A stretch of 64,000 nucleotides of DNA from Bdellovibrionales bacterium (GCA_020435005.1 JAGRAE010000001.1:609-64608), one strand, 5' to 3'; counted from the stretch's first letter, positions 48,936 to 55,105 are shown. Notes: generated by a model not told the origin, from the letters alone. Numbers and translations are program-made.

Positions 48936-48950
48936 TATGATCTAAATCAC
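48936..48950. promoter_or_regulatory. FNR/Dnr-type dyad (TGAT-N4-ATCA) in the divergent norC / 49042 promoter region
   Basis: tATGATCTAAATCAC lies about 55 nt upstream of the norC start. It is identical, as reverse complement, to 55091-55105 upstream of nirS. Confidence 0.6.
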
Positions 48951-49041
48951 CTCTTTCAGAAAATACTTCTTCCTCACTTTCATTTACATAGATATTTTAA
49001 GATTAATTTGTAAGAGGCACCTAGACAAAAAACTAAACAAC

Positions 49042-50427
49042 ATGAGAGGAGTAAAAGTGCCAAAGTTTTATTTATTGATTTATACCTTTTTTTTTACATT
49101 AGCAGGATTCGCACAAAATGGTAAAAACATTCAATTAAACGAATCTTCTGGTAGGATAAATCTTGCGGCTGAAAAACTAAAATTGTTTAAAGAACAAGAA
49201 TCTTTCAAAATTGAATACTCCTGTGAAAAACAAAAAATTTATCAAGAGAGTCAGAGCCTCCTACTTGGAAGCTCTCAAGAATGCAAACAAGAAATAATAT
49301 ACTTACTTCAAAGAAAACATAGAGAATTACTAACATTATCTTTTCTTCAGACCAATGCCCATCGGGACACCAACATTTATGATCAGTTTGGCCTTTCCAA
49401 GAGAGCTACTAAGACTGTTGCCAGAGCAAGAGTCTTACCTTGGCTCAAACTGACAGCTATGCATTTTACAGATGAAAATCTTCAAAAAGATCCTTACAGG
49501 CTCATCTCTGGATACATGAATATTTCAAACCAAACTGATTTTCCAATAGAAATTAACTATGGATACGAAGAGGATAGCAAATCGAAATTAAATATATTGT
49601 ACGGCAAAAAAAACTTTGGGATCTTAAAGGACTCTACAAGTTTATCATTATATGTGGGTGGTCTCATCCTAGATCAAAAATTTCGTAAAAATATCGAGAG
49701 AGAGGATAACCGCTATTTCAGTGCTTTGCAATTCAACTTTAACCAAATAGATCAGTCAATTATTTTGGGTGGTGGCAAAGAAGATAATGGACCTCACTCT
49801 TACTTGTTTGGTCTACACGGTTCAGTGCTCGGTAATGTCGCTAATGAGTGGATGAGCCTTTGTCGAGTAAAAAAAAATCGAAATTCAAAAGGAAGCCCAC
49901 TTAAAACACGATTTTGTATACTTTCAGTATCTATAGAAAATAAAAACTTAAAAAGGGGACGTTATACTGATTTTTTAGGAGTATTTACGCCCGGCATGAT
50001 CAAACCAACTCGAATTGTAAACGGAAGCACACTCAATGAAAACCCGACTTCAGCAACGACCAGATCATATCTGGATCGCCCCCTTTGGGAACTCACGGCT
50101 TCGACCACCGAAGTTGAAGTTTCTGAAAATGAAAATCTGTACTTAAGTTTAGTCGGTATAAACCGAAGTTTTAAAAGTGATGTTTTGTTTGCACGACATC
50201 CATTTTTTGGAATATCGCTTGAAATTAATAACCACATTTACTTTGATAGAAAAAGTTTTAAAGTTAAAGCTGATGATAATAAAAAAGTCTTAAATACAAA
50301 CTTTGGATTTGGATTAGGTAGTGGGAAAGGTGATAATTCCTGGGCTTTAGGGGCCTCTATTGGTTTTGATATTAAAAATGCAGACCCCATTCTTCAATTT
50401 GTACTATCAAAAAGATTTGGTGATTAA
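49042..50427 (+). CDS. Hypothetical secreted / outer-membrane protein
   Basis: Signal peptide ...LLIYTFFFTLAGFAQ. 461 aa, rich in beta-strand-like alternating segments and Gly/Asn turns. No recognised motif. Divergent from norC. Confidence 0.5.
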   Translation: MRGVKVPKFYLLIYTFFFTLAGFAQNGKNIQLNESSGRINLAAEKLKLFKEQESFKIEYSCEKQKIYQESQSLLLGSSQECKQEIIYLLQRKHRELLTLSFLQTNAHRDTNIYDQFGLSKRATKTVARARVLPWLKLTAMHFTDENLQKDPYRLISGYMNISNQTDFPIEINYGYEEDSKSKLNILYGKKNFGILKDSTSLSLYVGGLILDQKFRKNIEREDNRYFSALQFNFNQIDQSIILGGGKEDNGPHSYLFGLHGSVLGNVANEWMSLCRVKKNRNSKGSPLKTRFCILSVSIENKNLKRGRYTDFLGVFTPGMIKPTRIVNGSTLNENPTSATTRSYLDRPLWELTASTTEVEVSENENLYLSLVGINRSFKSDVLFARHPFFGISLEINNHIYFDRKSFKVKADDNKKVLNTNFGFGLGSGKGDNSWALGASIGFDIKNADPILQFVLSKRFGD

Positions 50428-50442
50428 AGTTAATATAATAAC

Positions 50443-50919
50443 CTACCAAAAAATAATTTTTAGAACATTGGTCGACTCTTTAATTGGTTCTAAAAAAGGT
50501 ACTCCATAGAAACTCAGAGTCGGTAAAACTTTATCAAGTAGTTTTAAACTGTCGACACAACCCTCTCCACCAAAGTATAGAGTTACATTTCTAATTCCTT
50601 GCAGATCGGATGGACTGTGCAAAACGCCCCCAAAGCCCTCAAGTCGACAATCGTATAGATCTGGAAAGTCAACATAGGCAGTGTAAGATCTACCCAACCA
50701 AAAACCCGTTTGATGCCATTGGGGATCATAGTTTATCCATTCTACTTGATACTCAACCTTATAGATTTTTGTATCGGGAAAATAAATAATTTCCCTTAGC
50801 TGATCACCACTTGAGTTTCTAGCAATACTCAGTTGTGCTTCGACAAAGTCAACATTAGCAAAAATCTGACTGGTCCATAACAATGTTGATAACACACCTA
50901 AAATTTTAAAAATTTTCAT
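50443..50919 (-). CDS. Hypothetical small secreted protein
   Basis: Signal peptide MKIFKILGVLSTLLWTSQIFA; 158 aa. Last gene of the apparent nirS-regulator-porin transcription unit, with a 32-nt gap to the porin gene. Confidence 0.5.
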   Translation of the reverse strand: MKIFKILGVLSTLLWTSQIFANVDFVEAQLSIARNSSGDQLREIIYFPDTKIYKVEYQVEWINYDPQWHQTGFWLGRSYTAYVDFPDLYDCRLEGFGGVLHSPSDLQGIRNVTLYFGGEGCVDSLKLLDKVLPTLSFYGVPFLEPIKESTNVLKIIFW

Positions 50920-50951
50920 AAATACTCCTCCCCAATAAAATAATTCATGAT

Positions 50952-52940: not shown

Positions 52941-52962
52941 TCTAAATACTCGGCAACAGTTG

Positions 52963-53002
52963 TCTCAATGCAAATTTACCATTTTGTAGATTTGCATTGA
53001 GA
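52963..53002. promoter_or_regulatory. 13-bp perfect inverted repeat between the nirS stop and the regulator gene start (terminator-like or operator)
   Basis: TCTCAATGCAAAT (52963-52975) and ATTTGCATTGAGA (52990-53002) with a 14-nt spacer. No U-tract follows on the minus strand. Confidence 0.4.
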
Positions 53003-53017
53003 TTATTTAAATAAAAC

Positions 53018-54991
53018 TTAATATATATCGTTCGTTGTATTATAAACATTAAATTTTCCTGTTGGCGTTATTAATCTATCATCTTTTATTACCTTTTTCA
53101 GTGCCCGAGTCTTATCATCTAGAATTACAATTGCTGATTTTTGATTTTTACCATTCCATACAGAAAACCAAACCTCATCGCCTTTTTCATTATATTCAGG
53201 TTGAACAACTCGTTTCGGACCATCACCAAGATCTGCCATTTCAGCTATAGGAATTACAGTAAATCCCTTTTCTAATTTCTTAATATCCCAAACTGCAACC
53301 GATTGACTTATTTTTATGTCTGGATTTAAGGGAGTATCTACCCAAAGATTTCTAGATTTCGGATGCGTCTTCAAAAATAGTGAACCACCACCCTGTCCTT
53401 TTAATGTGCGAACTACAGTCCATGCCTTTCTTCCCTGTGTCGAAATCAATGAAATTGTATTGTCGCCTAAATGACCTGTGGCCCACACATGCCCATGGTC
53501 AGGGTCTTTAAAATTGGCACCTCTTCCTGGGTGTGGAATGGCTCCAACATCAACTAACTTAATTAATTCTCCCTTTTTAGAGTCTATCACTGCAATTTTA
53601 TTTGACTTATTTGCAGCAGATAAAAAATATCGGTGTGTTCTGTCCCAACCACCATCGTGCAAAAATTGTGCTGTTTCAATTTCTGTGGTCTTTAAATTTT
53701 GAATGTCACTGTAATCAACCATCAAAACTTTACCAGTCTCCTTCACATTTATAATAAATTCTGGTTTTTCGTGAGAAGCAACTATAGCAGCAACACGAGG
53801 CTCAGGATGATATTCTTGAGTCCCTACAGTCATCCCTCGGGTGGACACAACTTTTAGAGGTTCAAGTGTATCACCATTCATTATTACAAATTGAGGTGGC
53901 CAATATGACCCAGCAATGGCATACCTATCTTCATAACCTTTATATTTTGAAGTCTCAACTGATCTTGCTTCAAGACCTACTTTAATCTCAGCGACGGTAG
54001 AAGGAGTATCCATCCATAGATCTATTAAATTTATTTTAGCATCTCGACCAATAACAAAAAGATAACGTCCGGAATTAGAAAGCCGAGAAATATGTACTGC
54101 GTAGCCAGTTTTAAGGATCTTAACTATTTTCTTACTGTCTCCGTCAATCAGTGCAATCTCACCTGAGTCACGAAGTGTGACTGAAAATAAATTGTTTAAA
54201 TTAAGCTTATTCTCTTGTTTTTTAGGACGCTTTTCAACAGGCACAAACACTTTCCACGATCCTGTCAACTCTTTCATTCCCCACTCCGGGGGAGTTGGTG
54301 GTTCGTTTTGAATATATCGAGCCATAATATTGATTTCTGACTTAGATAACTCTCCAGAGGTCCCCCAGTTTGGCATTCCCCCAGGAGAGCCAAAATTAAT
54401 AAAATTGGCAAGATAATCTGTACCTAATTTACGAGTTATATCCGGTGTTAAAGGTTTACCTGTTGCCCCTTTACGAAGCACACCATGACAGCCGGCACAT
54501 CGTTGAAAATATATATTCTTAGCTTTGTTAAATTCTGCACTTGTTAATCGAAGCCCCTTTGGCAATTGATTGTCTATAATGTCTCCTGCCATCACCGCTG
54601 AAGGGGCCCCTTCATATTTTGATGTTGGATTCTTCATCGAAGGTTTATCTTTTGGCTTAATTTTAGCTTTCTGACTAGAAAAATATGCTGCTAAATCTAG
54701 CATGTCTTGCTCACTAAGTGTGGCTGCATTCGGCTTCATTAAAGCCGCATTAGGAGTATTACGTGTTCCATCTTTAAATGCTTTTAGTTGTTTATACAAA
54801 AAAGTTGCACCTTTACCCGCAATAGAAGGGAACATTTTTTCATTTAAACTGTTTCCTCCCTCTCCATGACAAGCAAAGCACGTTGCTGCTTTTGCCCGTC
54901 CGGCCTTAGCATCGCCAGCAGCAAATGTATTTAAGGCCACCCCACTAAGAAGCAAGAAAAGACTGATCTTTGCTATTTTTTCTAAACTCAT
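53018..54991 (-). CDS. nirS: Cytochrome cd1 nitrite reductase NirS with an additional N-terminal c-type cytochrome domain
   Basis: From [20 protein letters not shown] onward it is near-colinear with Pseudomonas NirS as I recall it: [56 protein letters not shown]. An extra haem motif CFACH occurs at residues 38-42. Confidence 0.95.
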
Positions 54992-55090
54992 TACAAGCTC
55001 CTAATAATTAAAGAAATTTATCACCTTAGCCAAATTATAAACAATCAAATATTGAAATCAACGTTCATTTTAATCTTTTTTATGAGTATA

Positions 55091-55105
55091 GTGATTTAGA
55101 TCATA
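55091..55105. promoter_or_regulatory. FNR/Dnr-type dyad upstream of nirS
   Basis: GTGATTTAGATCATa is the reverse complement of the 15-mer at 48936-48950. It lies about 100 nt upstream of the nirS start codon. Confidence 0.6.

Follow-up and report, generated by a model that had tools for sequence, protein, structure and literature searches.

Two identical, inverted 15-nt sequences in a denitrification gene cluster of a Bdellovibrionales bacterium are very likely two of four operators of a DNR-like regulator that is encoded between them and whose predicted box is TATGAT-N4-ATCATA. We analyzed a 64-kb stretch of this metagenome-assembled genome (the window, 35% guanine-cytosine (GC) content). 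The sequence TATGATCTAAATCAC is read on the plus strand at 48936-48950, upstream of the nitric oxide (NO) reductase gene norC, and its exact reverse complement, GTGATTTAGATCATA, is found on the same strand at 55091-55105, upstream of the nitrite reductase gene nirS. The first-pass annotation had reported this inverted match, whose coordinates and sequence we reproduced, and had interpreted the two dyads as operators through which a locally encoded CRP/FNR regulator controls the nir and nor genes together. Comparative genomics supports such co-regulation: the context of the cluster is conserved, the palindrome recurs, its copies concentrate in intergenic DNA, and their distance to a -10 element is fixed.

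The 15-nt identity

The exact 15-mer occurs only at these two positions in the window, as determined by pattern search, and the similarity between the two flanking regions ends with the 15 nt. Given the base composition, 5.8e-4 further exact copies are expected by chance over the 64 kb and both strands, and the earlier view that a 15/15 identity is unlikely to be coincidental thus stands. Allowing up to three mismatches, the window contains 10 matches, compared with 3.7 +/- 1.9 in shuffled sequences. One could still attribute the identity to chance, or regard the 15-mer as part of a dispersed repeat or the remains of a mobile element, without any regulatory function: the window is AT-rich, about two copies of the bare core TGAT-N4-ATCA are expected per 64 kb, and one exact core indeed lies within a gene, at 18470. 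We assign this explanation a negligible probability. In addition to the low expectation and the abrupt end of the similarity, dozens of loci keep the motif at orthologous promoters, at a fixed distance from the -10 element, and these comparative data refute it.

A box variant that accompanies the regulator clade

A NirS scan of species-representative genomes recovered 80 nirS loci, from other phyla. None of them contained a close homologue of the regulator (at most 25% identity) and they were unusable for footprinting; we kept them as a negative control (1.33 Mb). The regulator itself has 60 homologues at E<1e-36, with aligned members 33-68% identical, and the named sources are only Bdellovibrionales, Bdellovibrionaceae, Pseudobdellovibrionaceae or Oligoflexia. 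Judging from this distribution, the regulator represents a CRP/FNR clade specific to Bdellovibrionota. We compared a first set of 13 loci (L081-L093) and an independent set of 36 metagenome loci (L093-L128). Across these more than 40 related loci, the regulator orthologues (39-68% identity) always lie inside the same cluster of denitrification and ribonucleotide reductase (RNR) genes. The recurring neighborhood comprises norCBQD divergent from a hemerythrin-like gene, DUF454 and porin genes divergent from the regulator and a small ferredoxin gene, and nnrS-sco1-nirV-nirK, in which nirK is fused to a cytochrome c domain, as well as a 90-aa gene and nrdJ or nrdDG.

A symmetrized count of 34 non-redundant sites yielded the family box TATGAT-nTAn-ATCATA. 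The core TGAT-N4-ATCA of the FNR/DNR operator, TTGAT-N4-ATCAA, is present in this box, but its outer T/A pair is not: the position of the first FNR/DNR T is occupied by A in 87%, G in 10% and T in 0% of the sites. The match to the FNR/Dnr consensus noted in the first pass hence holds for the core and fails for the outer bases. The outer flank played no part in the collection of sites, so its base preference is free of selection bias.

The positions of the sites are far from uniform. Among 32 exact TGAT-N4-ATCA cores in the first set, 19 fell within the 9.9% of the DNA that is intergenic (p=8e-12), upstream of norC, nirK, nrdJ, h90 (the 90-aa gene), the porin/regulator pair, the hemerythrin-like gene, nnrS and a HiPIP gene. 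The independent loci provided 51 new matrix matches of at least 13 bits, 40 of which lie in the 13.9% intergenic DNA (p=5e-25), with the same gene families downstream. The box also precedes nrdDG in relatives, where the porin has a box of its own. Comparing TTGAT-N4-ATCAA with ATGAT-N4-ATCAT, we counted 55 versus 2 occurrences in the control nirS loci and 2 versus 13 in 205 kb of regulator loci. These counts point to a lineage-specific variant of the box that travels with the regulator clade.

When the window was scanned with a matrix built from relatives only, exactly four matches reached 16 bits, all of them intergenic and within the cluster; the next match, at 10.7 bits, is coding. Both sites of the earlier annotation are among the four, whereas its total of two falls short, the others being located at 56634-56649 and 59245-59260 (Table 1). 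In L084, L086 and L088, the orthologous norC boxes are found 66-70 nt upstream of norC. Two additional exact cores in the window were discarded. The one at 18470, with a score of 6.9 bits, falls within the coding sequence of a 947-aa protein and was taken as a chance match. The other, TGATTGCAATCA at 59373, is 37.5 nt from a plus-strand gene (59416), has misfitting flanks and scores below 6 bits.

Spacing between box and promoter

We next consider where the boxes stand relative to promoters. A -10-like hexamer was defined as a match of at least 4/6 to TATAAT that includes A2 and T6; hexamers were sought on the target-gene side of each box, and offsets were counted from the end of the 12-nt core. 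In the first set, a hexamer was present at offset 23/24 in 31 of 43 promoter orientations, while every other offset had 0-7 (mostly 1-2). The peak at 23/24 was repeated in the independent loci (10/31). With the hexamer at -12 to -7, this offset places the center of the box at -41.5 or -42.5. A box at about -41.5, some 30 bp before the first base of the -10 hexamer, characterizes classical class II activation by CRP/FNR proteins, and the offset-23/24 promoters have no -35 consensus, so that they are predicted to be of class II. In the window, the norC, h90 and nrdJ promoters all conform, with a hexamer at offset 23 (Table 1). The norCBQD transcript would start near 48902, and its ATG is preceded by the Shine-Dalgarno sequence GGGAG.

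The norC box had also been placed in a region shared with the divergent gene at 49042. We rejected a role of the box at that gene: in that direction there is no hexamer at offset 23/24, and the gene has no homologue in the related loci. The situation differs in relatives, where the norC/hemerythrin-like intergenic regions of L081, L083, L084, L086 and L088 contain a single box with hexamers at 23/24 on both sides, which suggests bidirectional class II activation from one bound dimer. For the regulator gene of relatives, we also considered whether the box keeps a class I position and rejected this, as the box-promoter distances of approximately -63.5 to -69.5 are not in helical phase.

A DNR-like regulator with an altered recognition helix

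The regulator is a protein of 233 aa encoded on the minus strand at 52218-52919, starting from the ATG at 52919, which is M8 of the longer open reading frame (ORF). This start is indicated by a 100% identical database entry that begins at M8 and by the orthologues, which align from M8. The regulator has a sigma70-like promoter of its own, TTGAGA-18-TAGATT (52968-52939), whose -10 overlaps the upstream TTG of the long ORF. Membership in the CRP/FNR superfamily is clear from PF00027 (E=2.5e-13), PF13545 (E=3.9e-14) and PF00325, each of which passed its cut-off. The earlier identification of a CRP/FNR regulator with a VESIIR helix between the two sites is therefore confirmed, the cNMP_binding and HTH_Crp_2 domains both being recovered with Pfam.

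In a profile search of the PDB, the closest solved structure was Pseudomonas aeruginosa DNR (3DKW, E=2e-27). All other matches had E-values of 1e-20 or weaker, and 3DKW leads the next one by 22 bits, although the similarity is remote nonetheless. No NCBIfam model, equivalogs included, reached its cut-off; the Fnr model scored 55.5, against a cut-off of 228. An alignment of 18 clade sequences contained zero invariant cysteines, and the four-cysteine [4Fe-4S] set of FNR was not found in it. The sole recurrent cysteine column (C39 in the window protein) is occupied by other residues in 6 of the 18 sequences, and C5 and C7 of the long ORF precede the actual start codon. Sequence comparison thus argues for a DNR-like member of the superfamily rather than an FNR-like one.

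The recognition helix V-E-S-[VI]-I-R is invariant in the clade and reads VESIIR in the window protein. The residues of the E--SR motif in FNR are Glu209, Ser212 and Arg213, and Ser212 of E. coli FNR reads the outer T:A pair of the box. In the clade, the Glu and Arg of this motif are invariant, and the Ser is replaced by an invariant Ile. It is plausible that this Ser-to-Ile change caused the replacement of T by A or G in the box, since changes in the helix and in the bases of the box are documented to be correlated in the CRP/FNR family (PMC1274295).

Alternative binders and the nirS promoter

Several observations weigh against the proposed scheme, concerning the identity of the binder, the sensor and the nirS promoter. 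The core positions of the matrix were partly set by the collection of training sites, a bias that affects neither the flanks nor the site positions nor the independent loci. A second CRP/FNR gene is present in the cluster at L086, L091, L092, L110, L115, L117 and L118, and the helices read in three of these paralogues, PESVMR (L086), TETLIR (L092) and TETVTR (L091), could recognize a similar half-site. As paralogues with a similar E...R helix exist in some relatives, the assignment of the boxes to the local regulator rests on co-localization. Moreover, our view of the genome spans 64 kb, and a further FNR-type protein may be encoded elsewhere. The boxes could then be real operators of another CRP/FNR protein, such as a true O2-sensing FNR or a "Reg2"-type paralogue, with the local regulator acting on other targets. 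We regard this as improbable. Neither the window nor most of the related loci encode the second paralogue, whereas a VES[VI]IR regulator is encoded in every box-carrying locus. In addition, the invariant Ser-to-Ile change matches the non-canonical outer base, and the box thins out to 11 matches in 235 kb where the homologues are most distant (21-36% identity), compared with 51 in 276 kb.

With respect to the sensor, the column of DNR His139, a residue involved in haem coordination (PMC8510549), is never His in the clade (T/V/G/S/A/I/C; V148 in the window protein, HMMER alignment). The clade therefore has neither a conserved cysteine cluster nor His139. The column of the second DNR histidine, His187, is likewise not His in the clade.

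The nirS box misses the class II spacing, as its hexamer, TAAAAT, is at offset 19 rather than 23/24. It is also 106.5 nt from the ATG, versus about 60-70 nt for nirK in relatives. The first-pass expectation of a box centered near -41.5 was accordingly borne out at norC and not at nirS. Between this box and nirS there is a well-matched sigma70-like promoter, and if it is used, the box is centered at about -70.5. Positions -70.5 and -71.5 are productive class I positions for CRP and FNR. The nirS box would then act in a class I manner if at all, a reading whose basis is the consensus match of the promoter.

The origin of the nirS box bears on the same question. Two independent draws from the family matrix are identical over 15/15 positions with a probability of ~0.008, and hence shared regulation alone does not fully account for the identity between the norC and nirS boxes. 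The box may have been copied when nirS was installed, or the identity may be a chance event at the 1% level. In all 40-odd related loci it is nirK, never nirS, that stands beside the regulator, and among the regulator-clade loci (L081-L128) nirS takes the place of nirK-nirV-sco1 only in the window. The nirS box may thus be a vestige, non-functional or weakly functional, that was carried along or copied from norC during this replacement. Expression of nirS would in that case depend on the sigma70-like promoter or on read-through from h90-nnrS. The off-rule spacing of the box, the 10/12 match of the sigma70-like promoter, the lack of any terminator-like site found between nnrS and nirS and the excess identity with the norC box, which suggests copying, all favor this explanation. 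We nevertheless consider it unlikely. The nirS box is intact, scoring 16.5 bits, the level of the norC box, within AT-rich intergenic DNA where unselected sequence decays. Furthermore, the GC content and third-position GC content (GC3) of nirS are host-like, indicating that the arrangement is old and the nirK/nirS exchange not recent, and, as stated above, its distance from the sigma70-like promoter is a productive class I position.

Gene content of the cluster

The features of the cluster are listed in Table 1. All genes between 44.2 and 59.2 kb are on the minus strand, the exception being the 461-aa ORF at 49042. NorC and NorB are homologous to the structurally defined cytochrome c-dependent NO reductase (cNOR), and NirS to cytochrome cd1; the best relatives of NirS share 65-75% identity with it.

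Table 1. Predicted genes, operators and promoter elements of the denitrification cluster, in window coordinates. Offsets are counted from the end of the 12-nt box core.
Feature	Position	Strand	Basis or remark
norD	44210-46039	-	Pfam VWA; norQ-norD pairing fits a nor operon
norQ	46042-46842	-	Pfam AAA_5 and CbbQ_C
norB	46829-48163	-	PDB 3O0R_B (P. aeruginosa cNOR subunit B), E=1e-112
norC, 240 aa, diheme	48160-48882	-	Residues 3-135 vs 3O0R_C, E=4e-31, then an extra C-terminal cytochrome c domain
norCBQD, cytochrome c-dependent NO reductase operon	44210-48882	-	Pfam and PDB
norC -10-like hexamer TATGCT	48914-48909	-	Offset 23, fits; box center about -41.5
norC operator (predicted), TATGATCTAAATCACC	48936-48951		16.8 bits; core TGATCTAAATCA at 48938-48949; center 61.5 nt upstream of norC ATG (48882)
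461-aa ORF	49042-50427	+	Pfam: no match
158-aa ORF	50443-50919	-	Pfam: no match
Porin, Alginate_exp type	50952-52193	-	Pfam
Porin and 158-aa gene, directly downstream of regulator	50443-52193	-	Probably co-transcribed with nirS and regulator
Regulator, CRP/FNR family	52218-52940 as ORF; 52218-52919 from ATG	-	Pfam
nirS, cytochrome cd1 nitrite reductase, 657 aa	53018-54991	-	Pfam Cytochrom_D1, E=1.5e-146, and two cytochrome c domains
nirS sigma70-like promoter TTGATT-16-TATAAT	55061-55034	-	10/12 matches; one of the top four over 12 kb
nirS -10-like hexamer TAAAAT	55072-55067	-	Offset 19, outside the 23/24 rule; box center would be about -37.5
nirS operator (predicted), AGTGATTTAGATCATA on plus strand, TATGATCTAAATCACT in nirS direction	55090-55105		16.5 bits; center 106.5 nt upstream of nirS ATG (54991)
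nnrS	55160-56275	-	Pfam NnrS
h90 (conserved 90-aa protein)	56305-56577	-	Pfam: no match
h90-nnrS, predicted target operon	55160-56577	-	h90/h88 homologues carry the box in relatives
h90 -10-like hexamer TATAAT (perfect)	56612-56607	-	Offset 23, fits
h90-nnrS operator (predicted), TATGATTTACCTCATA	56634-56649		16.2 bits
nrdJ, class II (B12-dependent) RNR	56654-59218 as ORF; 56654-59194 from ATG	-	TIGR02504, E=1.6e-143
nrdJ -10-like hexamer TATAGT	59223-59218	-	Offset 23, fits
nrdJ operator (predicted), TATGATCTATGTCATA	59245-59260		20.4 bits, top-scoring

NirS has an additional N-terminal cytochrome c domain and NorC a C-terminal one, the latter being kept in relatives; these extra domains suggest built-in electron donors. 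The NorD homologue is very divergent, with at most 25% identity to NorD beside other nirS loci and a weakly detected VWA domain, unlike NorB, whose best relative (L003) shares 72% identity with it. No nirE/F/J/N-like genes for haem d1 biosynthesis were found when all window ORFs of at least 80 aa were compared with the 80 nirS loci and ten further ORFs with Pfam. Maturation of NirS would depend on genes in the rest of the genome, beyond the 64 kb.

Compared with its relatives, the window has the regulator inverted and lacks the small ferredoxin gene, which most of them encode just after the regulator. The hemerythrin-like gene that stands beside norC in relatives is replaced by the unrelated 461-aa secreted protein, which more likely starts at GTG 49057, after AGGAG, than at 49042. 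The ~90-aa protein is persistently linked to nrdJ or norC (L083, L084, L086-L092, L096, L100, L110, L111, L115, L117 and L118), and its BLAST-labelled homologue in L089 carries a DUF2249 annotation. With its own box in most cases, the 90-aa gene would be an uncharacterized core member of the regulon.

The true start of nrdJ is probably the ATG at 59194, which has an AAGGAG Shine-Dalgarno sequence; the TTG at 59218 falls within the predicted -10. The nrdJ operator forms the center of a 56-bp near-perfect palindrome (59225-59280), whose 25-nt arms are 96% complementary across a 6-nt spacer and which reaches well past the 16-bp box. This extended palindrome is unique to the nrdJ box, pairing 25 of 28 positions, versus 6-15 in the other window boxes and in 30 sites of relatives. 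A site for a second protein, a cruciform and an insertion remnant are all possibilities. An Rfam scan of 44000-61000 detected no riboswitch or small RNA; a single sub-threshold microRNA match was caused by the nrdJ palindrome. Another inverted repeat (52963-53002), with 17-nt arms that are 94% complementary and a 6-nt loop, directly follows the nirS stop codon and overlaps the -35 of the regulator's sigma70-like promoter. Lacking a T-run, it does not qualify as a classical terminator, but may dampen transcription that continues past nirS or serve as the site of another protein.

Discussion

From the observed sequences, conservation, positional bias and -10 spacing of the boxes, we infer the binder, the direction of control and the effector, with decreasing confidence. 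The boxes are almost certainly operators of a CRP/FNR protein. That this protein is the local regulator is well supported by the co-occurrence of the two, and it probably acts as an activator. The signal is the least certain step. By analogy with DNR/NnrR regulons, NO or low oxygen appears most likely, as the regulon combines nitrite reductase, NO reductase, NnrS and, in relatives, hemerythrin-type genes with O2-independent RNRs; for NO specifically, we put the chances at even.

In the mechanism we propose, a dimer of the regulator would bind the palindrome of each of the four boxes. Three of these, before norCBQD, h90-nnrS and nrdJ, would be situated about 41.5 bp upstream of the transcription start, stand in for the -35 element and recruit RNA polymerase in a class II manner. 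At nirS, with the box at about -70.5 from the sigma70-like promoter, the regulator would act in a class I-like fashion, if at all, or contribute little. The nirS, regulator, porin and 158-aa genes may form one transcription unit, given the gaps of 98 bp between nirS and the regulator and 24 bp between the regulator and the porin gene, and the fact that no T-run terminator was found; such a transcript would create positive feedback. Nitrite reduction, NO reduction, NnrS and the O2-independent RNR would consequently be induced together.

Denitrification clusters are normally under the control of a cluster-encoded CRP/FNR activator, and such activators, acting from TGAT-N4-ATCA-type boxes centered at -41.5 in front of nir and nor genes, are textbook knowledge for Pseudomonas and for beta- and alphaproteobacteria. 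The regulator described here resembles E. coli FNR (and ANR) in its superfamily, in the Glu and Arg of E--SR, in the TGAT-N4-ATCA core and in the predicted class II position at about -41.5. O2-independent RNR genes are likewise among the FNR targets of E. coli. It differs from FNR in that the N-terminal cysteine cluster and the fourth cysteine are not conserved, which leaves no [4Fe-4S] O2 sensor, and in having Ile in place of Ser212 and A/G rather than T at the outer base of the box.

The likeness to lineage-specific regulators of the NnrR/HcpR type is of another kind. Here too, a CRP/FNR clade is encoded within the nitrogen-oxide cluster that it is predicted to control, the regulon includes nirK/nirS, norCB and nnrS, as well as hemerythrin-type genes in relatives, and the box departs from that of FNR in step with helix substitutions. 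The NnrR box, TTGCG-N4-CGCAA, is a different sequence. The boxes of HcpR, wTGTGA-N6-TCACAw, wyTTGAC-N4-GTCAArw or GTAAC-N4-GTTAC, differ from the one found here (Rodionov et al. 2005, PMC1274295).

With DNR of P. aeruginosa and P. stutzeri, the regulator shares the CRP/FNR fold, the best match among solved structures (3DKW) and the absence of the FNR cysteine cluster. As in the window, DNR boxes with the core TGAT-N4-ATCA are located upstream of nir and nor genes, and the gene content of DNR/NnrR regulons resembles that of the window (PMC1274295). The nrdJ box also has a counterpart, as a Dnr box is required for the anaerobic induction of nrdJ in P. aeruginosa (PMC4860495). The differences from DNR lie in the box (TTGAT-N4-ATCAA, compared with TATGAT-N4-ATCATA here, where the outer base is never T), the helix (E-T-F-S-R, compared with E-S-[VI]-I-R), the His139 and His187 columns, the remoteness of the similarity and the host phylum, here Bdellovibrionota.

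Overall, the system is very probably a switch of the ordinary, expected kind, in a lineage-specific version of box and helix found in Bdellovibrio-like bacteria. Our literature search found no published description of such a regulon in Bdellovibrio or Bdellovibrionota, whose anaerobic or microaerobic capacity is only now under discussion (bioRxiv 10.64898/2026.07.03.736386). Because of the differing outer base, a standard FNR/DNR matrix would miss these sites, which is relevant to automated regulon annotation. The pairing of the Ser-to-Ile change with T-to-A/G adds a further data point to the link between residues and bases established for the CRP/FNR family (PMC1274295).

A more far-reaching interpretation, which we hold to be doubtful, is that the VES[VI]IR proteins are a distinct Bdellovibrionota clade of CRP/FNR regulators with a DNA specificity of their own, an uncharacterized sensor and a combined denitrification-RNR output, and that an operator-preserving swap of nirK for nirS took place in the window. 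If so, the specificity for ATGAT-N4-ATCAT would be set by the Ser-to-Ile change in the helix, and the sensor would operate without the Fe-S cysteines of FNR or the haem histidines of DNR, possibly together with the adjacent small ferredoxin or hemerythrin-like genes of relatives. The swap would have come with a shift from class II to class I promoter architecture. Under this interpretation, truncated denitrification (nitrite to N2O) would be coupled to an O2-independent RNR, and Bdellovibrio-like bacteria, a group that includes predators, could replicate DNA under NO stress or anoxia. The analysis provides a regulon model for nitrogen-oxide respiration in Bdellovibrionota, consisting of a 16-bp box, four predicted promoters in the window and dozens in its relatives.

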